IMG/VR virus record: IMGVR_UViG_3300011423_000008
Location: 7,760 to 71,759 of that record
Direction: 5' to 3' (one strand)
DNA: 64,000 nt
From: a virus
Taxonomy: Duplodnaviria; Caudoviricetes
How positions within the stretch are numbered: position 1 is the first letter of the stretch; the number at the start of each line of letters is the position of its first letter. Below, piece by piece: positions 2,896 through 52,500 of the stretch. The notes below the pieces were generated by a model, which was given only the letters and a program-made list of their open reading frames with translations, did no database searches and had not been told where the DNA came from. The translations under genes and the position numbers were made by a program.

Positions 2896-3096
2896 CGCGC
2901 TGTAGCTCAGATGGTAGAGCACGATGTTATATCAGTAATGGTATAACATTCCCGAACAAAAGACAAAAAAGGATGAAACAAAAGTTAATAGAGGGTTCGA
3001 AACCGATATTAATTAGTAGTGGATTTGGATATTGTTTGGCGGACGGGGCACAAAACATGTGTGAGGTCGGTTGTTCGATTCAATCCGGCGCGACCA
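2896..3096 (+). ncRNA. oversized tRNA-like RNA (201 nt) with inserted domain
   Basis: Acceptor CGCGCTG/CGGCGCG + ACCA; D arm GCTC-AGATGGTA-GAGC; T arm GGTTG-TTCGATT-CAATC; about 147 nt between D and T arms. Confidence 0.8.
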
Positions 3097-3287
3097 TTTT
3101 AAATAATAATCTTATGTCTCGTTCAAAATTACCAGTTGAATTAAGGTGTTTAGATCGTCCCACTAGACGAAAAGTTAAACCCATTCCAGAAATAAGAAGA
3201 ACATCTTGGGAACGGTATAACGCACGAATGGCTAGAAGCAAAAATGCGTGGCAAAAAAGAAAATATTATAATTCGTTTCGATAATAT

Positions 3288-3709: not shown

Positions 3710-3891
3710 AAAACGAACCGCATCCTTCTCACGAAATGACAGAATGGGAAAGCACTATAGTTACTATTATTTCTACTTCTCGGTTTGGTAAGTTTAGAAA
3801 ATGTAAGAATTGCGGGGCGGAACAGGCCGAGACGGTGGCGGGAAAAGCGATGCACGAAGAATTGAAAAACCCCTGTTTACTTGAAAACTAA
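3706..3891 (+). CDS. small Cys/His-containing protein
   Basis: MKNEPHPSHEM... with CxxC; internal ATG of track ORF 3439..3891. Confidence 0.55.
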   Translation: MKNEPHPSHEMTEWESTIVTIISTSRFGKFRKCKNCGAEQAETVAGKAMHEELKNPCLLEN

Positions 3892-4312
3892 ACCATTTCA
3901 ACTAAGATGGAACGAACCATTAGGAAAGAAAGAATGTCCTTATGCCCGGAGATTTGTTTTATTAGTTTTTGATTTTGGTTTGAGACTTCATATTTGGAAA
4001 AGATCAGACGATAAAAGATATTTCCATAATCATCCTTGGGGATTTATTACTATAGTTTTATGGGGCAGATATACTGATGTAAGCAAAAACCCCGAGACGG
4101 GTAAAACAACAATAGATAAACTATCATTTTTATCCATTCGTTATCGTCCTGCGAGTCATCTTCACTATGTTGATGTTCCTGAGAGCGGGGCGGTAACGCT
4201 GGTTTTGAGCGGACGGCCCTTGACAAATTGGGGCTTTTGGGTTAATAACAAGATCATGCGCCCGTTACGATTTTTTAGTCGGTACGGGCATCCGGCTTGT
4301 AACGAACAATAA
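3881..4312 (+). CDS. cupin-fold protein (putative)
   Basis: Motifs LHIW...HNHPW...HLHYV typical of phage cupin-like proteins. Confidence 0.6.
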   Translation: MKTKPFQLRWNEPLGKKECPYARRFVLLVFDFGLRLHIWKRSDDKRYFHNHPWGFITIVLWGRYTDVSKNPETGKTTIDKLSFLSIRYRPASHLHYVDVPESGAVTLVLSGRPLTNWGFWVNNKIMRPLRFFSRYGHPACNEQ

Positions 4313-17581: not shown

Positions 17582-17739
17582 ATAGATAAGAGAAGAATAG
17601 GATAAATAAGATATGTTTTTTGGATTATTTAATTGGGAGATTGTTTCGGGTGGGTTTTCTCGGTCGAAATAATCAAAATGTTAATCGTAACATTATCAAA
17701 TAAAATAATTTAAAATATCAATAAACCCCAATAAAATCA

Positions 17740-17934
17740 ATGAATATCAATCAATTTTTAGTTTTTTTATCATTAGGTATTTTAATCACAAATTGGTTTA
17801 TTTTGGGTGCGCGGCCATTCCGCAAGCGGGAAATAACGCCCTCCAAAGAAATAATTAAAATCATTTTAACGGTGGCGAATGGAGCGATTATGATATTTTT
17901 ATTAATAAATTGGATCGTTTGGGTGGCGAAATAA
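17740..17934 (+). CDS. small two-TM membrane protein
   Basis: Two hydrophobic helices. Confidence 0.55.
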   Translation: MNINQFLVFLSLGILITNWFILGARPFRKREITPSKEIIKIILTVANGAIMIFLLINWIVWVAK

Positions 17935-18973: not shown

Positions 18974-19154
18974 GGGGGCGTAGCTTAAATGGTCAGAGCA
19001 ACGGAGTGACTTCCGTATCTGAAATTTAGATTAGAATAATTTAGGGTTAGTCGCCTAGAGAAAAAACTAATTTAAATTCAGACTAAAGCGAATGGGTTTA
19101 TTTGACTGATAAACGAGATAGCTTTAGGTATAGGTTCAAAGCCTATCGTTCCCA
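18974..19154 (+). ncRNA. oversized tRNA-like RNA (181 nt) with inserted domain
   Basis: Acceptor GGGGGCG/CGTTCCC + A; D arm; T arm ATAGG-TTCAAAG-CCTAT; long inserted helices. Confidence 0.8.
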
Positions 19155-32341: not shown

Positions 32342-33124
32342 AATATCTTTCCGATAAACTGTAACGGTACCCTTTTTACTTGCGGCTATTCGGGCGACTT
32401 TATTAGCAAATTTTATGCTTTCAATAATATCTCCTTGCTCTAAGTACTTGACTACCAACCCGGCGAGAGCGGAATCGCCACATCCTACTACATCTCTAAC
32501 TTCAATGGGATCAATAGGATAGACTTTTCCTTTGAATTGCATTCCTCGTTTTCCTAAAGTAACAATGGTTCCTTTTCGGCAAAAATCGTCGGGGTTTATA
32601 TTATGTTTTAAATTGTTCTCATATTCGGTTTGATTAATTTTAATAAAATCAATATATTGATATTTTTCAGAAAAAATATCTTTAGAATCTAAAAAAGTAG
32701 GTATGTTTAGAATATGGCATTTTTGACTAATTTTAAAAATATCGTCAGACAACAAAAATCCCTTATTATAAGAACTAATCACAACAGCCTTATAAGCTTT
32801 CAAATTATCTTTTTTTATTAATTTATCAACAATTTTAGACGAAATACGATCTACTTTGTCGTTTTCGTCTACGCGTAATAAAATATAATTAGAATTTTTG
32901 TCTATATAACGAGTTTTACGTATTAGTTTATCATTATATACAAAATCGATGCCTAGTTTGGGATTTAGGCCCTTGATGTTATTATAAACATTTCCGGCCA
33001 TTCCTTTGGTTGCCGATGTTATATAAGGAGTTATTACTGGAGTTGGAGCTTCGGGATTTAAACGATTACAATCTCCATACATAAACACATCTAGACATTT
33101 TTCACCTAATAATAAAATTTTCAT
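32336..33124 (-). CDS. hldE: PfkB-family kinase, RfaE/HldE domain I-like (heptose-7-phosphate kinase)
   Basis: LDVFMYGDCNRLNPEAPTPV, GMAGNV, VTLG, DVVGCGDS. Confidence 0.85.
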   Translation of the reverse strand: MKILLLGEKCLDVFMYGDCNRLNPEAPTPVITPYITSATKGMAGNVYNNIKGLNPKLGIDFVYNDKLIRKTRYIDKNSNYILLRVDENDKVDRISSKIVDKLIKKDNLKAYKAVVISSYNKGFLLSDDIFKISQKCHILNIPTFLDSKDIFSEKYQYIDFIKINQTEYENNLKHNINPDDFCRKGTIVTLGKRGMQFKGKVYPIDPIEVRDVVGCGDSALAGLVVKYLEQGDIIESIKFANKVARIAASKKGTVTVYRKDIV

Positions 33125-39040: not shown

Positions 39041-39114
39041 AGCCGTATAGTGGTATCGCGCCACTCAACACAGGTTTTGCAGACCTAGCGGTTCAACTTG
39101 CTCCGTCACACGGC
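39041..39114 (-). tRNA. trnC: tRNA-Cys(GCA)
   Basis: Cloverleaf; loop CT-GCA-AA. Confidence 0.85.
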
Positions 39115-39119
39115 GTTAT

Positions 39120-39195
39120 TGGGGTAACGTACGAGATTCGCACTCGCTCCGAATCCTTCACAGGGATTGATGCTAACTATTACAACAACGTTACC
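39120..39195 (-). tRNA. trnH: tRNA-His(GTG)
   Basis: G-1/C73, encoded CCA, loop CT-GTG-AA. Confidence 0.9.
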
Positions 39196-39521
39196 ATTAA
39201 ATTATTTTTTAAAAAATATCGGAAGCACTACGGTTTCAAGAATAAACCCGATTAAAAGTGACACAACCCAATACAACGGAATTTGAATTTCAAAAAATTT
39301 CTTCATATTAATTAAAAATTTGTTCCCATTCCCCGGTTTTCTTGTCTTGCTCCCAAGTATAACTATTACTTGGCGGAATGATGATGCTTTTAATTAAACG
39401 CGACCAATCCTTTTGCGAGCCCTTGAATGTATCAGGCTTATCTTCCATGATTTTCCGAATGTCTTTTTTCGTTACTTTCATCTTTAATAATAGTAAAGGG
39501 GTTATGTTTATTGATCAAGTC

Positions 39522-39644
39522 TTATTTTAAATATTTTGTCCATTCGGGTGCATTAGGATTACGAGTATGATTAATTTTATACGTTAAACAGCCGCTTGCC
39601 CAAACTAAAAGGACAAATGCTGCGATAAGTAATATATGTTTCAT
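39522..39644 (-). CDS. small lipoprotein-like peptide
   Basis: MKHILLIAAFVLLVWASGC. Confidence 0.5.
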   Translation of the reverse strand: MKHILLIAAFVLLVWASGCLTYKINHTRNPNAPEWTKYLK

Positions 39645-39658
39645 TTTAAATTCAATAT

Positions 39659-39730
39659 TAGTCCGAGTGGGATTTGCACCCACAACCCCACCCTTATAAA
39701 GAGCACGCTCTAACTTTGAGCTACCGGACT
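39659..39730 (-). tRNA. trnI: tRNA-Ile(TAT)
   Basis: Cloverleaf; loop TT-TAT-AA; wobble-rich anticodon stem. Confidence 0.75.
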
Positions 39731-39739
39731 GTTCATTTG

Positions 39740-39828
39740 CGGATTGCACTAGACTTGCACTAAACGCCTTTTTAGGGGCGCGATCTGTTTAGCAAACAGT
39801 CTCGGCTCGCTTGTCCGATTTACAATCC
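39740..39828 (-). tRNA. trnS: tRNA-Ser(GCT), 8/4 fold
   Basis: Loop TT-GCT-AA, long V arm, G73. Confidence 0.85.
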
Positions 39829-39834
39829 ATTCCA

Positions 39835-40059
39835 TTAATTAAGTCCCAAATGTCTGGAGTCATCTTCTAATCTTGCCATAATATACCAACTAGGGGTTGT
39901 CGGCTCGCTATTATATCTCTTATTATAAGTTTCGCAAAATTTAATTGCCGCTTTTTTAGTTTTAAAGGTTTTGATTTCATCTATTTTTTGGCCCCATCCG
40001 GCCTCAGATTCAATCATTAAAACTCGAAATTTATTAGTCGCTGCTGGATTTCTGCCCAT
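39835..40059 (-). CDS. hypothetical protein
   Basis: ATG ORF within the array. Confidence 0.6.
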   Translation of the reverse strand: MGRNPAATNKFRVLMIESEAGWGQKIDEIKTFKTKKAAIKFCETYNKRYNSEPTTPSWYIMARLEDDSRHLGLN

Positions 40060-40068
40060 ATAATTTAA

Positions 40069-40075
40069 GTGTAAT
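40069..40075 (+). promoter_or_regulatory. putative late promoter motif
   Basis: GTGTAAT ahead of a 23-codon ORF. Confidence 0.45.
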
Positions 40076-40121
40076 ATATTTATATCAATTATGCAAGAAA
40101 AATGGTATGAAAAAGAATGGT

Positions 40122-40421
40122 TTATTGAATGGCTTCGTCTTGCTCGGAATCCAGACTATTAAGATAGTCGGCAATAATTTCCCCATGACACCTATTATAA
40201 GGCTTACAAAAACATCCAAGTTTTTTATTTTTTAATTTAATTAATTCTGCCACGAATCTTTTATCTTTTAATAAAAAAGGAAACCATTCGTTTTTATATC
40301 TTTCAATTACTTCGTCGCGGGTACCGTCGCGTCCAATAATATAAGGATTGCCAAAAATAGACCCGCGCCCAATATAACATGAATTTTTATCGTCGCGCCA
40401 ATTAACTACAGTAGTTATCAT
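40122..40421 (-). CDS. DUF4326-domain protein
   Basis: YIGRGSIFGNPY...LGCFCKP..CHGEII. Confidence 0.85.
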   Translation of the reverse strand: MITTVVNWRDDKNSCYIGRGSIFGNPYIIGRDGTRDEVIERYKNEWFPFLLKDKRFVAELIKLKNKKLGCFCKPYNRCHGEIIADYLNSLDSEQDEAIQ

Positions 40422-40846
40422 ACTAATGAACGAGGATGATATTCTTCTCGAAGTTTTTCGTATTCCTCCTTGCTTAAAACTTTTTCGATTTCGTTTGGAT
40501 GAGATATTTGAAACCCTCTTATAAACCGATGTTCTTTCGTAAAACCATAATATATGCCCGGACGTTTTGCGTGGGCGTTGAAAAACATGCAATGTCCTAT
40601 TAAACCATTTTTTAATATTACAGACTTATCCAAATAATCTTTGAATAATTCCATCATGCTTTCCGATCTTTTTATTTTATTTTTACGATGCCGTTCGAAA
40701 GAAAATAAGGGGTTATCTCGGCAAAGGTGACGGGTTTTATTTTTGTTAAACATTGCCCATTTTCCGTTTTCCTTTTGCGCCCAAAACAACCCTGATTTAT
40801 TGCAATATTTACAATAAGTTTCATTATATAAATCAAGTTCCGACAT
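40418..40846 (-). CDS. hypothetical protein
   Basis: ATGA overlap; CKYC...HLC. Confidence 0.6.
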   Translation of the reverse strand: MSELDLYNETYCKYCNKSGLFWAQKENGKWAMFNKNKTRHLCRDNPLFSFERHRKNKIKRSESMMELFKDYLDKSVILKNGLIGHCMFFNAHAKRPGIYYGFTKEHRFIRGFQISHPNEIEKVLSKEEYEKLREEYHPRSLV

Positions 40847-40850
40847 ATAA

Positions 40851-41099
40851 TTAATCAGTAAATTCTACCCCCAAAGGATGTTTTATTAAATCTTCTGCCT
40901 TGTATGGTTCTCTCCAATTATGTCTAATCCATTTTGCGGCACAATTTTTAGAACAAAAATAATGATGTTCTAAATTATCTGTATGAGATTTATTACATGA
41001 AGCGCAATGAGTAGATTTACTAACATTGATAGTAATAGTTTCTTGATTGAATTCTATTAATTGTTTATTGCATTCTTTACATCCAATAATTTGCATCAT
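40851..41099 (-). CDS. Cys-rich (Zn-binding) hypothetical protein
   Basis: CKEC, CASC, FCSKNC. Confidence 0.6.
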   Translation of the reverse strand: MMQIIGCKECNKQLIEFNQETITINVSKSTHCASCNKSHTDNLEHHYFCSKNCAAKWIRHNWREPYKAEDLIKHPLGVEFTD

Positions 41100-41103
41100 A
41101 AAT

Positions 41104-41198
41104 TGGCGGAGCGCGGAAATCCCGCCTTTCAGTCTCCCCGTAAAGAAAGACCCATCTACTTTCCAAGTAGCGATAGAACCTTGTCTATTTCACGCTCC
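41104..41198 (-). tRNA. trnS: tRNA-Ser(GGA), 8/4 fold
   Basis: GGAGCGTG/CGCGCTCC + GCCA; loop TT-GGA-AA; long V arm. Confidence 0.8.
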
Positions 41199-41203
41199 AT
41201 TTT

Positions 41204-41291
41204 CGGTTAATTGTGGTCCTGCCCCACATACCTTTTTAAAGGGTACCGTCCGTTTTCGAAACGGCAACAAACCTTGTTTGTTTAATTAACC
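41204..41291 (-). tRNA. trnS: tRNA-Ser(CGA)
   Basis: GGTTAAT/ATTAACC + G; loop TT-CGA-AA; long V arm. Confidence 0.8.
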
Positions 41292-41330
41292 ATTATTTAA
41301 GGGGCGTGATTTCACAATCAGTTACGCCCT

Positions 41331-41337
41331 GTGTAAT
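41331..41337 (+). promoter_or_regulatory. putative late promoter motif
   Basis: GTGTAAT 7 nt before ATG 41345; preceded by a GGGCGTGA/TTACGCCC hairpin. Confidence 0.55.
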
Positions 41338-41344
41338 TAATTAT

Positions 41345-41875
41345 ATGACGGAAGACGTAATTAATCAAATAAAAATTTTGCACACTCAGGGACTTGGATA
41401 TACTAAAATTTCAAAACAACTTAATGTCCCTCGTTCTAATGTTAAATATTATATTAACCATGAAAAAGAAAAAACAAACAGTGCAAAACGTCAAGCTAAA
41501 TACCGCAAAACAGACCCAATAAAACATAAACTAATGTTAGTAAAATTTCGCAAAGGAAAAAACGAATTTAATCGTTTGAGTCGCAAACGAAAAACCTTAC
41601 CACCTAAATTTACATTAGAGGAATTTAAAGAAAAAATTTTCAAAAATCCATATTGTTATTTAACGGGCCGCGAAATTAATTTAGAAAATCGAGATTCTTA
41701 TTGTTTCGATCATATTATTCCTAAATCAAAGGGCGGCGATAATTCTTTAGAAAATTTAGGTCTTACTTGCAATGATGCTAATGCCGCAAAAAGCGACATG
41801 TTGTTAGTTGATTTTTTTGCTTTATGCAAAGAGATTTTGGAACATAATGGTTATATTGTGAATGCGGTTCAATAA
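41345..41875 (+). CDS. HNH endonuclease with N-terminal HTH
   Basis: CYLTG...FDHIIPKSKGGDNSLENLGLTC..AN.AK. Confidence 0.85.
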   Translation: MTEDVINQIKILHTQGLGYTKISKQLNVPRSNVKYYINHEKEKTNSAKRQAKYRKTDPIKHKLMLVKFRKGKNEFNRLSRKRKTLPPKFTLEEFKEKIFKNPYCYLTGREINLENRDSYCFDHIIPKSKGGDNSLENLGLTCNDANAAKSDMLLVDFFALCKEILEHNGYIVNAVQ

Positions 41876-41956
41876 GGACTTGCACCTTAGTCCGATTGAT
41901 TACGGCTCCCATCAATTTTCAAAATTGCGCCGATACGCTTGCTCGGTTCTTGAACC
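41865..41956 (-). tRNA. trnS: tRNA-Ser(TGA)
   Basis: Loop TT-TGA-AA, long V arm, G73. Confidence 0.85.
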
Positions 41957-41961
41957 ATTAT

Positions 41962-42035
41962 TGCGCCTATCAGGAATTGAACCTGAAGCCTTTTCTTTCG
42001 CAAAGAATTATGCAAATCCATTACACTTTAAGCGC
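41962..42035 (-). tRNA. trnR: tRNA-Arg(GCG)
   Basis: Cloverleaf; loop TT-GCG-AA; canonical TTC T loop. Confidence 0.85.
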
Positions 42036-42211
42036 ATTAAAATGTTATTCTATCACAAACGAATCTTGTGTCATTCCAAATACTAATTCACAATTTTCTC
42101 CAGCATAAAGAGTTTTTCCTTTTAATTTTTCTATAAATTCAGAAGCTTTTGTTTGGTCCAAAGGTTCGCCCGTCGCTTCCAGTTCAACCCAATATATGAT
42201 TTTTTTATGTT

Positions 42212-42424
42212 TCATCCTATTTTTTTACTTCCTTCAACGCAATTATCTCCATCTGATTCGGGCAATAGCCACATTTTTTTACAACTCCAGCAAACTACTC
42301 CATCGGGGTCTATGCCGCAAGTATCATCTAAGTCGCCCGCGTACCAATAATTCTTTTTATTGCATTTGGGGCAATTATCTGCTAGATACATTTCCATATT
42401 AGCCGTAGGATGGTTCTGCCCCAT
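42212..42424 (-). CDS. Zn-ribbon hypothetical protein
   Basis: CPKC...CWSC. Confidence 0.55.
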   Translation of the reverse strand: MGQNHPTANMEMYLADNCPKCNKKNYWYAGDLDDTCGIDPDGVVCWSCKKMWLLPESDGDNCVEGSKKIG

Positions 42425-42481
42425 CGTCTCATTCTTACCAAGAATATATTCTACTATTGAAATACAACGGCATTATCAAAA

Positions 42482-42547
42482 AGCTATATCTGATACTTGC
42501 AATCAGCACGCTAATTTACGAAATTAGACTAGGTGCTTACATATAGC
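42482..42547 (-). tRNA. trnT: tRNA-Thr(CGT), D-arm truncated
   Basis: GCTATAT/ATATAGC; CTAAT-TTCGTAA-ATTAG; CTGAT-TGCAAGT-ATCAG; only 13 nt in the D region. Confidence 0.7.
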
Positions 42548-42729
42548 ATGTTGATAGGAGCGACAAAATTAATTTTTAAATCTAAACTAGGAATTTCCAT
42601 AATCCAAATATCGGCGCGTTTAATTAATTTATATTCAGAATCATTTATTTGTTTAATTAATCTATCAATAATATCAGCAGTAAGTCGCGCTTCTCTAAAA
42701 GTTTTACCGGTAATATGTAATTCCTTCAT
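42529..42729 (-). CDS. hypothetical protein
   Basis: ATG ORF. Confidence 0.5.
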   Translation of the reverse strand: MKELHITGKTFREARLTADIIDRLIKQINDSEYKLIKRADIWIMEIPSLDLKINFVAPINMLYVST

Positions 42730-42735
42730 ATAATT

Positions 42736-42818
42736 AGCCGTCTATCGGACTCGCACCGATGTTGGGATTTCTCCGTCAGTTTACAAAACTGGTCCTGTCG
42801 CTTCTGAGGCAAGACGGC
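42736..42818 (-). tRNA. trnT: tRNA-Thr(TGT) with long variable arm
   Basis: Loop TT-TGT-AA; G1-C72, C2-G71; V arm GGA-GAAA-TCC. Confidence 0.75.
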
Positions 42819-42826
42819 ATTAAATT

Positions 42827-42899
42827 TGACTCCGTAGGGACTTGCGCCCTCCTGTTTCGTTTAAGAGACGAATCCATCGGCTATCTATGGGTCGGAGCC
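42827..42899 (-). tRNA. trnK: tRNA-Lys(CTT)
   Basis: Cloverleaf; loop CT-CTT-AA. Confidence 0.9.
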
Positions 42900-42965
42900 A
42901 GTGTTTTATGGATGTAAATTTTCTAAATTTTTAATTTCTGAAGTAGTTTTCGCGACTTCCTTCTT

Positions 42966-43196
42966 TTATTTGTTAATTTCCGCCGCGACTTCATAAAGGC
43001 CAACCGCGCCCGCGCCGACAAGACAACCGGTAACAGCTACCGCGCCACTAAATACTCCTAAATACAAAGGCCATATAATTGCACCTAATCCAATAGCAAT
43101 TATTGGCAAATAATGATTTTGAATTTTAGGAAAACCTTTAACAATACCTACAATGATATTAATTAAAGCCGATACTAATAATGCATTTGGGTCCAT
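42966..43196 (-). CDS. phage holin-like protein
   Basis: Three hydrophobic segments; YLPIIAIGLG...GAGAVGLYE. Confidence 0.7.
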   Translation of the reverse strand: MDPNALLVSALINIIVGIVKGFPKIQNHYLPIIAIGLGAIIWPLYLGVFSGAVAVTGCLVGAGAVGLYEVAAEINK

Positions 43197-43213
43197 ATTT
43201 TTATTTTTAAATT

Positions 43214-43288
43214 TGTTCTCGGTGGGATTCGAACCTACATTATCCAGTTATGCGCTATCTCTTTAGGAAAGAGTGCCAATACGAGAAC
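43214..43288 (-). tRNA. trnR: tRNA-Arg(CCT), D-armless with D-loop-like V arm
   Basis: GTTCTCG/CGAGAAC; 7-nt connector; loop TT-CCT-AA; V region with AACTGGATA loop; TTCGAAT. Confidence 0.7.
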
Positions 43289-43411
43289 GATCATTTTTCT
43301 ATTAAAATTCCATTATCAAAATAAAGTTCAGGCACGCCTTTTTCATTAGGCCCTAAAGGACGATTCAGAGCAACACAACCAACAAGTCCAATAAGGCAAG
43401 CCGCCCACAAA

Positions 43412-43918
43412 CTAAATCTTCCAATAAATACAAGACGCAATTTCATTTCTAGTTAAATAAACTATCCGCCCGTTTTGCGGTTCTATAAATCCCATTCTAA
43501 CATCGCCCCCCTCTTTATACAAGAAGAAATTAATAGCGTGCCCTCGATTTGTAGATTCTTGAATATAAAAGAATTCCCCGATAGCTAATTGGTAATCATT
43601 TAATGAGTTTAAATCGCTCGCGACTTCTTGAGCCCCTAATGAAAAGTTATCACAATCAAAAGATTCTAGTTTATATTTTTTATTATAAAACTTTGACGAT
43701 AAATAGTTTACGTAAACAGTTTTGATCCAATGTTTGGTTGGTAAATAGTATGTTTTGTCGGAGATAACCGAACCATTCGAAGGGTGAACCCCCACGGTAA
43801 CATAAATATCTTCTATTTGAATCGTGCCATCCGTTTCGGGCGCGACGTAAGATGTAGAATCAATAGTTTTACAACCAATTACCAAACATAAAAAGAAAGC
43901 AATAATTATTGAGCGCAT
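43412..43918 (-). CDS. lipoprotein with papain/transglutaminase-like catalytic motifs
   Basis: LVIGC lipobox; FDCDNFS and GHAIN. Confidence 0.65.
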   Translation of the reverse strand: MRSIIIAFFLCLVIGCKTIDSTSYVAPETDGTIQIEDIYVTVGVHPSNGSVISDKTYYLPTKHWIKTVYVNYLSSKFYNKKYKLESFDCDNFSLGAQEVASDLNSLNDYQLAIGEFFYIQESTNRGHAINFFLYKEGGDVRMGFIEPQNGRIVYLTRNEIASCIYWKI

Positions 43919-43926
43919 TTGTTATA

Positions 43927-43933
43927 ATTACAC
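43927..43933 (-). promoter_or_regulatory. putative late promoter motif
   Basis: GTGTAAT 8 nt before ATG. Confidence 0.6.
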
Positions 43934-44037
43934 TTAGTTTTCTATAATCATGATTCGATCCTCGCTGGCCCCCGATCTTTTAGGCTCGGGCGCGAGCCAA
44001 AGAAATATAATACCAAACAATAGAATAATAATCAAAA

Positions 44038-44114
44038 TGGTAGCCACGGTAGGATTCCCACCTACATACAATCGTTTCGAAGACGATGACCTTAATAAAT
44101 TAGGTGACGCGGCC
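44038..44114 (-). tRNA. trnR: tRNA-Arg(TCG)
   Basis: Cloverleaf, encoded CCA; loop CT-TCG-AA. Confidence 0.85.
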
Positions 44115-44129
44115 ATAAATTAATAATAC

Positions 44130-50878: not shown

Positions 50879-51826
50879 TTAAGTGGGTAATAAAGGAAAT
50901 AAACCAGTAGTACTAATAATAAGATCGTCTATTGCCGTAACGCTAGTTAAAGCCGGTCCCCCGTGAGAATCGCATCGACCCAAACGAATAACTCTAATTT
51001 GGCTTGGAAGTCCGCCAATAGTTATTGATAATTCTAGTCCAGATTGCAACATAGTCCCGGTATCATATACGCGGGCATAAAATTTATCTCCCGATGCCGC
51101 TAAACATGTAACCCAATACGCTCTCCCTGTTACTATAGGAATACTTCCTGAAACGCCAACATTTGAATGAGCGGAAAGAACTTGTCCATTGGTTCTTAAT
51201 TGCAAAACTCCGAATTGTCCATTTTGCATATCCATTTCAATTTGATCAATAGAAGCAAAATTACCGCCCCCTTCATCATTACTACCAAAAGTCATAAAGC
51301 AACCCAAAGAAACTCTATCATAGGTTGGAGTAAAAGGCAGTCGAATTGTATTTAATTGACCGTTTTGGAATCTTAACGCGTTTACTCCGGTATCAGTAAA
51401 CCCCGTCCCATTAATTGAAATACCGCCGAACAGTCTTCCTTCACCTTCTGTTCCCAAAACAATTGTAGAACCACTTGCCCCAGAAGTAATTACCCAAGGA
51501 TCACTTGTAATATTTCCAAACGCACTATTTTGTAAAAACCCGCTTGTGACAGGTCCAGACGAAGCAAAATCCATATTTAAATAATAATTTACTGGTAAAT
51601 AAGAAATCGAAACACCGCTAGTAGTAAAAAAATGTCCAGTTAAAACAGTATCTAAAATAGAAAAATATTTCTTTCTAACTTCATCGGAATATTTTCTTCT
51701 TTGGTTTGCTGTCCAATTACCGTAATAACCCGACCCCTCTAATTGAAAAGTTGTCAAATCTAAGCCGCTTCTAGGTAGCTGATGCAATCGATTGCCAAAA
51801 TTTGAATAATTACCAGTTAGATACAT
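50879..51826 (-). CDS. beta-sandwich (ConA/LamG-like) putative virion protein
   Basis: Beta-rich C-terminal domain ending TAIDDLIIST; late motif upstream. Confidence 0.5.
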   Translation of the reverse strand: MYLTGNYSNFGNRLHQLPRSGLDLTTFQLEGSGYYGNWTANQRRKYSDEVRKKYFSILDTVLTGHFFTTSGVSISYLPVNYYLNMDFASSGPVTSGFLQNSAFGNITSDPWVITSGASGSTIVLGTEGEGRLFGGISINGTGFTDTGVNALRFQNGQLNTIRLPFTPTYDRVSLGCFMTFGSNDEGGGNFASIDQIEMDMQNGQFGVLQLRTNGQVLSAHSNVGVSGSIPIVTGRAYWVTCLAASGDKFYARVYDTGTMLQSGLELSITIGGLPSQIRVIRLGRCDSHGGPALTSVTAIDDLIISTTGLFPLLPT

Positions 51827-51837
51827 ATTTGATATTA

Positions 51838-51844
51838 ATTACAC
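51838..51844 (-). promoter_or_regulatory. putative late promoter motif
   Basis: GTGTAAT 11 nt before ATG. Confidence 0.6.
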
Positions 51845-52192
51845 TGAATTATTAGATTTCTTTTCTAAGTCTAACTGTGCGTGCAATTTTCTATGGCAAT
51901 TTGCACATAAAACATCACATTTAGCTATTTCTGCTTCGATTTTCTCATCGCTGAAAAATTTAGCCATTTTACTTACGTCTTTTATTTTTTGAGCCGGGTC
52001 GCGATGATGAAAATCCAAACAACAAAAATCGTTCTCGCCACATTTTATACAGAACAAAATATTTTTATATTTGATTATAAATGCTTCTTTCCGAGTTTGT
52101 TTTCGTATTTTAGCTTTGGTTTTATATGCGACTTTGTGTTTTTTATAATATTCGCGAAACCATTTGTTGTAATTTTCTTTGTTACGTGGCAT
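51839..52192 (-). CDS. HNH endonuclease
   Basis: CIKCGE...LDFHHRDP..K...KCDVLCANCHRKLH. Confidence 0.9.
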   Translation of the reverse strand: MPRNKENYNKWFREYYKKHKVAYKTKAKIRKQTRKEAFIIKYKNILFCIKCGENDFCCLDFHHRDPAQKIKDVSKMAKFFSDEKIEAEIAKCDVLCANCHRKLHAQLDLEKKSNNSV

Positions 52193-52267
52193 TGGTGAGG
52201 GATGCGAGTAACGCTCTCGCTAATTCAGATTGGAAGTCTGACATGTATCTGTCAACATCTATCCCCC
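52193..52267 (-). tRNA. trnG: tRNA-Gly(TCC)
   Basis: TCAGA-CTTCCAA-TCTGA; CCA. Confidence 0.85.
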
Positions 52268-52273
52268 AAAATT

Positions 52274-52346
52274 TGGACCAGCAGGGTAACGCTCCCTGTT
52301 CTATACATTGCAAGTGTATTGTGTTAACTTTTAGCACTACAAGCCC
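52274..52346 (-). tRNA. trnA: tRNA-Ala(TGC)
   Basis: G3-U70, A73; loop CT-TGC-AA. Confidence 0.85.
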
Positions 52347-52348
52347 TT

Positions 52349-52416
52349 CAGGTTGTGTGAGACTCGCACTCACCAAGACAAGTTTTGGAGACTCGTCACC
52401 GCCTTGCGGACAACCT
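52349..52416 (-). tRNA. trnW: tRNA-Trp(CCA), mini D arm and 7-bp anticodon stem
   Basis: AGGTTGT/ACAACCT + G; CCGC-AAG-GCGG; GACGAGT-CTCCAAA-ACTTGTC. Confidence 0.8.
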
Positions 52417-52425
52417 ATTTTAAAA

Positions 52426-52500
52426 TGGAGCGGGTTGCGGTATTTGCAACCGCTTCTGGAGAATGGCAATCTCCCGTTTCACTACATAAACTAAACCCGC
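52426..52500 (-). tRNA. trnG: tRNA-Gly(GCC)
   Basis: GCGGGTT/AACCCGC + TCCA; loop TT-GCC-AT. Confidence 0.9.

Follow-up and report, generated by a model that had tools for sequence, protein, structure and literature searches.

The 64,000-nt stretch of DNA analyzed here (the window) belongs to a 71.8-kb IMG/VR virus record that was judged 55% complete; the same phage is also known as a 213-kb assembly. At 2896-3096 on the + strand, the window carries a tRNA-shaped RNA gene of 201 nt with a 7-bp acceptor stem, a terminal ACCA, and canonical D and T arms, in which about 147 nt occupy the site of the anticodon arm (Table 1). This element is located outside the tRNA cluster of its phage and is packed tightly between small ORFs of the + strand, and it lacks both a promoter and a terminator of its own: the gap to the upstream ORF is 11 nt (2885-2895) and that to the downstream ORF is 18 nt after the CCA. 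The downstream 56-aa ORF gave no family match and is conserved, with 2 amino-acid changes, in a close relative of this locus, the contig L010 described below. Another ORF, 2973-3284, runs through the element, and we rejected the protein-coding reading that it offers; in L010, an insertion of 1 nt puts a stop into it, so that it is not a gene.

Table 1. Features of the tRNA-framed element and of the ORF that follows it, in window coordinates.
Feature	Position	Strand	Remarks
Acceptor 5' strand CGCGCUG (DNA CGCGCTG)	2896-2902	+	7/7 pairs with 3086-3092, one G.U; C1-G72
U8/A9 (UA)			Between the acceptor 5' strand and the D arm
D arm GCTC-AGATGGTA-GAGC (RNA GCUC-AGAUGGUA-GAGC)	2905-2920	+	A14, G15, G18, G19, and A21 present; invariant in relatives
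Anticodon-stem 5' strand and loop remnant CGAUG-UU-AU	2922-2932	+	Aligned to 27-31 plus CUGAU of relatives; G34 absent
Hairpin 1, arms ATGTTATAT/GTATAACAT	2923-2950	+	12 bp, GUAA (GNRA) tetraloop cap; from the fold
Central branch	2952-3039	+	Long-range helix of CCGAACAA (2952-2959) with TTGTTTGG (3032-3039) (RNA CCGAACAA/UUGUUUGG)
T-loop-like hairpin, 8-nt loop GUUCGAAA	2984-3013	+	Inside the central branch; family-conserved
Hairpin 3 GCACA-AAACA-UGUGU	3048-3062	+	3' strand overlaps family positions 39-43
Variable-loop region GAGGUC	3063-3068	+	C48 can pair with G15; AGGUC conserved in the family
T arm GGUUG-UUCGAUU-CAAUC (DNA GGTTG-TTCGATT-CAATC)	3069-3085	+	
Acceptor 3' strand CGGCGCG, then A73 and encoded CCA	3086-3092 (ACCA 3093-3096)	+	
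Basic 56-aa ORF	3114-3284	+	Starts 18 nt past the CCA; outside the RNA

The element has the acceptor, discriminator, G18-G19 D arm, and UUCRA T loop of a canonical tRNA. Every position of the tRNA elbow is intact (U8, A14, G15/C48, G18, G19, U54-A58, and G53-C61), and the third acceptor pair is C3-G70. The predicted fold has a minimum free energy of -59.5 kcal/mol (z = -4.3), which none of 200 shuffled sequences equaled. An earlier note on this DNA had described an acceptor stem, D and T arms, hairpins, a long-range helix, and a T-loop-like motif here; every one of them is present, and what it listed as the hairpin ATGTTATAT/GTATAACAT is really the tetraloop-capped hairpin 1. In a home-made strict scan for tRNA frames, requiring 7/7 acceptor pairs, a D arm with GG, 5/5 T-stem pairs, and the T-loop consensus, the real genome gave 4 oversized matches versus 0.3 per shuffled genome. 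ARAGORN with default settings and Rfam made no call on the element, and with E allowed up to 10, RF00005 still had no match between 2700 and 3300; when introns were allowed, ARAGORN produced only a poor Gln(ttg) model.

Oversized tRNA frames also occur at 18974-19154 (+; 180 nt) and 48845-49000 (-; 155 nt), each with a GG D loop, a UUC T loop, and an unrelated insert, and the second of them has G3-U70 together with A73, the alanine identity pair. In the tRNA array at 39100-52500 (-), most T loops read UGCRA, with G at position 55, and the D loops are without GG, likewise in the related phages L008 and L009. The canonical UUCRA/GG pair of the oversized elements, unlike the tRNAs of the array, hints at a different origin as judged from these loop sequences.

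The route to relatives of the element led through a neighboring gene, 3881-4312, which encodes a 143-aa cupin-like protein (phrog_4786) with an HxH...H motif. We surveyed 80 IMG/VR loci (L013-L092), with the cupin-like gene at about position 3001 in each; loci with cupin-like homologues often have oversized C1 tRNA frames just upstream, and two families of such frames were found. Family (a), which is Ile(GAU)-type and comes from large uncultured phages, comprises L006, L013, L014, L016, L017, L023, L027, L033, and L099, the last of which was recovered by a 5'-half pattern. Its members share C1-G72, A73, the D arm GCUC-AGUUGGUA-GAGC, an anticodon stem with 5/5 pairs, and CUGAU at positions 32-36, and their anticodon is immediately followed by an insert of 70-195 nt. 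The element has C1-G72, A73, the D arm GCUC-AGNUGGUA-GAGC, and the GUUCGAAA hairpin in common with this family in addition to overall similarity; the insert blocks GGGUUCGAAACC and AUUGUUUG align between the two, and the acceptor stem covaries across the family. The dinucleotide A-Y directly precedes positions 39-43 in 7 of the 9 relatives inspected and in the element as well. An nhmmer profile built from L099, L014, L013, and L006 found a single match in the window, 2896-3094, at E = 1.9e-11, while a profile of the insert only gave a marginal E = 0.059, again as the sole window match and at the correct place; the Ile-family profile did not match the oversized frames 18974-19154 and 48845-49000. 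Judged from these alignments and profiles, the element is a descendant of a phage family of insert-bearing tRNA-Ile(GAU)-type genes. The profile match thus places the element within a family, which the earlier note had missed, and it is not a stand-alone RNA.

Family (b) consists of Val(NAC)-type genes that lie directly upstream of the cupin gene in many large phages. Members without an interruption have unusual loops, 5-12 nt in length, and in interrupted members 56-147 nt precede a conserved NACAU. These tRNA-Val(NAC)-like genes also have C1-G72; A35, C36, and A37 are conserved in them and U33 is not. It is to this Val-type family, not to the element at 2896-3096, that the cupin-like protein (3881-4312) is linked. 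The neighborhood of the cupin gene gathers translation-rescue genes, among them a full tmRNA gene directly after the cupin-like gene (L080:3533-3940) and a 131-aa RF-1-domain (ArfB-like) gene that follows it in another phage (L007:830-1225). The tRNA-Asn(GUU) at L077:1699-1967 is split by a true group I intron (70 bits against RF00028), and several other tRNAs of that phage carry unclassified inserts, about 100 nt long. Both strands of the acceptor stem of the element, and its D arm, recur unchanged in L095 (IMGVR_UViG_2867207765_000001, 1042-1066, -), where they belong to a tRNA(CAU) of normal size; this phage is unrelated and GC-rich.

Copies of the element itself are rare, one phage and one near-identical fragment being the only sources. 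A blastn search of a phage database gave no homologue, and exact patterns of the central domain, like those of the 5' half, found no other copy in viral, metagenome, and genome collections. The flanking small proteins and TerL were also searched in viral contigs, where nothing was found, and the protein P0002 had one homologue only.

Comparison with family (a) shows how the anticodon arm has decayed in this copy. The element reads CGAUG-UU-AU where the relatives have the stem followed by CUGAU, so that G34 is missing, and the stem 27-31/39-43 retains 2/5 pairs against 5/5 in every relative; the leftover 5' strand of the anticodon stem has been absorbed into the 12-bp hairpin 1. Since CUGAU is missing and the stem that closes the insert is broken, the element is a derived, decayed member of family (a). 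Nowhere does it form an anticodon arm of the usual kind, with 5 bp, 7 nt in the loop, U33, and a purine at position 37. The best candidates for an anticodon arm are the 12-bp tetraloop hairpin and a hairpin of 4-5 bp with the loop AAACA or AAAACAU; AAAACAU, in hairpin 3, is the only loop able to carry an anticodon, and it has A33. ARAGORN runs on interval-deletion derivatives yielded no convincing tRNA and mostly 2-letter pseudo-anticodons. Because G34 and the 27-31/39-43 closure are lacking, no canonical tRNA can be rebuilt. The absence of a usable anticodon loop, which had been pointed out before, is thereby borne out by the deletion runs and the broken stem. The accompanying statement that no spliceable exon pair exists holds for this copy, with its 2/5 stem, and fails for other members of the family, which have reconstructable pairs; likewise, the view that the anticodon arm has been replaced stands insofar as no usable arm is left, and needs amending insofar as a remnant becomes recognizable once the relatives are aligned.

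Inside the insert, the hairpin with the GUUCGAAA loop is conserved together with its pairing. In an alignment of 7 family members, 90.5% of its cells are paired and 5 of 6 pairs show compensatory changes; none of 500 shuffles matches this covariation, and slid controls collapse. The helix has about 11-12 stacked layers under a T-loop-like cap, and this hairpin may be a mimic of the top half of a tRNA.

The contig L010, a 722-bp ENA entry that is 91% identical to the window, covers the 3' 130 nt of the element only. Over the central domain at 2967-3040, the two are identical at 74 of 74 positions, whereas 9 changes, 8 of them substitutions and one an insertion, fall in the next 56 nt (Fisher p = 3e-4). 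All 8 substitutions leave the predicted pairs unbroken, and those in the tRNA body lie in loops or are compensatory: the first T-stem pair changes from G-C to A-U on both sides. In hairpin 3, one G.U becomes G-C, and the loop reads AUAAUA in L010, differing in both sequence and length. When 8 substitutions were placed at random, such an outcome appeared in 3.8% of trials (p about 0.04). These comparisons, drawn from one relative and the 3' 130 nt, point to selection on the RNA structure of the element, for which the evidence is modest but real. The nearest large relative, whose TerL is 76% identical, has its genes in the same order as the window, and no copy of the element occurs in the 20.7 kb of syntenic early region recovered from it; for that phage lineage, therefore, the element is dispensable. 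The closest large relative, L008, also encodes an amber-suppressor tRNA with anticodon CUA (17673-17749), and several cupin loci have CUA tRNAs too; as far as gene content can tell, these tRNAs suggest TAG recoding in this phage group.

Just upstream of the window (locus L106), the phage encodes a tRNA-Leu(UAA) whose variable arm is long (G000:C1:3244-3534) and whose anticodon loop is split by a genuine group I intron (about 205 nt; RF00028, 37 bits, E = 6e-6). The first hairpin after P1 of this intron, which is likely its P2, has arms identical to the GUUAUAU/GGUAUAA arms of hairpin 1, with a GNRA loop in both, and this GUUAUAU...GGUAUAA motif occurs twice in 71.8 kb, once in each of these two places. 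Part of the insert is thus related to a group I intron or was copied from one, a resemblance that the earlier note had missed. A ribozyme core is absent from the insert of the element, which gave no match to RF00028 or any other Rfam ribozyme at E up to 10 in a search for which the Leu(UAA) intron of the same genome, at 37 bits, served as positive control for RF00028; the inserts of the relatives gave no Rfam match at E up to 0.01.

Several other identities were considered and rejected. The element is not itself a group I intron, given that a core (P3-P9) and an RF00028 match at E up to 10 were both absent, nor a tmRNA, given C3-G70 instead of G3-U70, no tag reading frame, and no call by ARAGORN -m or Rfam. 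A box C/D or k-turn RNA was suggested by GAUGAAAC, which is common to another oversized element, and by a weak sR52 match (E = 2.5); no box D partner was found, and sharing of this 8-mer by chance is plausible. Some relatives start their insert with CUGAUGA, which recalls a hammerhead, and they have neither the stem II/GAAA arrangement nor an Rfam match. For a bulge-helix-bulge intron, we looked for two 3-nt bulges around a 4-bp helix at the junctions, plus a splicing endonuclease: L066 gives a drawing of this kind, its splice points yield no 7-nt loop, and other members do not fit. The relatives carry tmRNA, which indicates bacterial hosts. Finally, an IS200/IS605-type insertion beside TTAC would have the wrong orientation.

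Based on these results, we propose, with moderate confidence, that the element is a non-decoding, unspliced, tRNA-framed RNA akin to RNA1 and RNA2 of T5, to species 1 and 2 of T4, and to the "enigmatic" tRNA introns of Lak phages, a reading built on comparison of sequences. The element would be transcribed with the surrounding genes and released by RNase P and by trimming of the 3' side back to the encoded CCA. Both RNase P and the 3' exonucleases read the acceptor/T-arm half of a tRNA, and because this frame is intact, the element should be excised. An RNA of about 200 nt would then accumulate unspliced and stable, the tRNA frame giving processing and stability, and the conserved central domain, as a second mimic of the tRNA top half, would be the working part. 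This domain may bind a factor that recognizes elbows or T loops and would then act as a decoy or sponge, a step that is speculation; the roles put forward by the earlier note, as a decoy for tRNA-targeting defenses or a scaffold delivered by EF-Tu or a synthetase, are hypothetical too. Charging of the element by IleRS or ValRS is unlikely, as both enzymes rely on bases of the anticodon.

The element could instead be an intron-containing pre-tRNA that is still spliced, through a protein route or by the Leu group I intron acting in trans, to give an unusual tRNA that uses hairpin 3 or a repaired anticodon arm. We judge this to be decidedly unlikely, even though the relatives keep CUGAU (C32-U36) on the 5' side and their intact members look splicing-dependent, the A-Y before positions 39-43 could be the residue of an intron inserted between 36 and 37, and the genome has a true group I intron in tRNA-Leu(UAA), whose first hairpin after P1 is copied by hairpin 1. 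Unexplained introns have also been reported in the tRNAs of Lak megaphages (PMC6784885). The exons of the element, however, rebuild no cloverleaf, with the stem at 2/5 and G34 missing, and hairpin 3, with A33 in its candidate loop, has kept neither the sequence nor the length of this loop in L010. Signs of a splicing machinery are equally wanting: the Rfam searches of the element and its relatives found no ribozyme at the thresholds given above, G is the last intron base in only 3 of 8 relatives by inspection, no bulge-helix-bulge motif was seen on inspection, and the 68 ORFs of the window, a set outside which two thirds of the genome lies, include one 2H phosphoesterase match and no splicing endonuclease or RNA ligase domain. 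In addition, a group I core does not fit into 130 nt, and the insert, at 130 nt or less, is too short for one.

It is somewhat less improbable, while still unlikely in our view, that an insert-bearing tRNA gene is here decaying into a relic with no function, still excised by way of its surviving frame. Loss of the anticodon and its stem, absence of the element from the syntenic stretch recovered for the nearest large relative, and the failure of exact patterns to find another copy of the central domain or the 5' half in viral, metagenome, and genome collections would all agree with such decay. On the other hand, the changes in L010 spare pairs and include a compensatory one, the central 74 nt are invariant against a 9% difference in the flanks, and the encoded CCA and every tertiary-pair position have stayed intact. 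Punctuation of transcripts by tRNAs is known in organelles, and the element might mainly be a processing signal in cis, where cleavage by RNase P and at the 3' end separates the upstream message from the 56-aa ORF. Its tight spacing to both neighboring ORFs, its want of a promoter or terminator, and the conservation of the downstream ORF alongside it would suit this function; a plain tRNA or a minimal frame would suffice for it, however, which leaves the conserved 74-nt domain and the family hairpin unexplained, and we find it very unlikely. Also quite improbable is the idea that the inserts of the Ile(GAU)- and Val(NAC)-type families carry a new RNA module, a covarying helix of 12 layers that ends in the T-loop-like GUUCGAAA loop as a second tRNA top half. 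The module would be either the handle of a non-group-I way of intron removal in bacterial viruses or a dedicated decoy of host elbow factors, under the condition that this copy gave up decoding and kept only the module.

The preferred reading, a non-decoding RNA in a tRNA frame, has counterparts in other phages. The species 1 and 2 RNAs of T4 (rnaC and rnaD) are the classical stable tRNA-like phage RNAs. In T5, RNA1 (AY543070, 30501-30644) and RNA2 (32959-33083) are annotated as "tRNA-like stable RNA with unknown functions" and fold with the same layout of frame plus insert as the element, namely an acceptor, a D-like arm, and a T arm. The precedent of phage stable tRNA-like RNAs, invoked by the earlier note, was thus apt. 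The T5 and T4 RNAs are 120-145 nt long, whereas the element, a putative stable RNA, has 201 nt; it has no sequence similarity to them, as the phage database gave no match, and in contrast to them, its place is outside the tRNA cluster and its ancestry leads back to an insert-bearing family of Ile(GAU) type.

Other tRNA-related RNAs resemble the element in part. tmRNA and the bacterial Y-like RNA YrlA are, like the element, non-decoding RNAs with a tRNA-like domain; YrlA has its tRNA-like part inside and its Ro-binding stem at the ends, whereas the ends of the element form the acceptor stem. The insert site is like that of the group I introns in the anticodon loops of bacterial, plastid, and phage tRNAs, and the element differs from such tRNAs in that it has no catalytic core, is too short, and has exons that rebuild no tRNA. 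Ponchon and Dardel reportedly described in 2007 an engineered tRNA scaffold in which a cargo RNA replaces the anticodon arm, the chimera being processed and stabilized in a tRNA-like way; as a laboratory construct, it offers a functional analogy only. The tRNA genes of Lak megaphages have "enigmatic" unclassified introns that are highly conserved between related phages (Devoto and colleagues, 2019; PMC6784885), and these inserts belong to no Rfam class and sometimes include a tRNA-like piece (PMC6784885). A 2026 survey repeats the finding of enigmatic tRNA introns for jumbo phages (PMC13037316). The likeness to the Lak genes is one of description only; those genes were interpreted as spliceable tRNAs with an identifiable anticodon, whereas the element has neither an anticodon nor its stem.

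Non-decoding tRNA-shaped phage RNAs have been known since T4 and T5, and the inserts in megaphage tRNAs since 2019; the element links both. What is new here is its traceable descent, the covarying GUUCGAAA hairpin, and the link to the hairpin of a group I intron in the same genome. The GUUCGAAA hairpin provides a concrete covarying motif for searches and for pull-down. Comparison of the element with its family, in which the anticodon has been lost and the hairpin of the insert retained, suggests that selection can act to preserve the insert rather than the capacity to decode.
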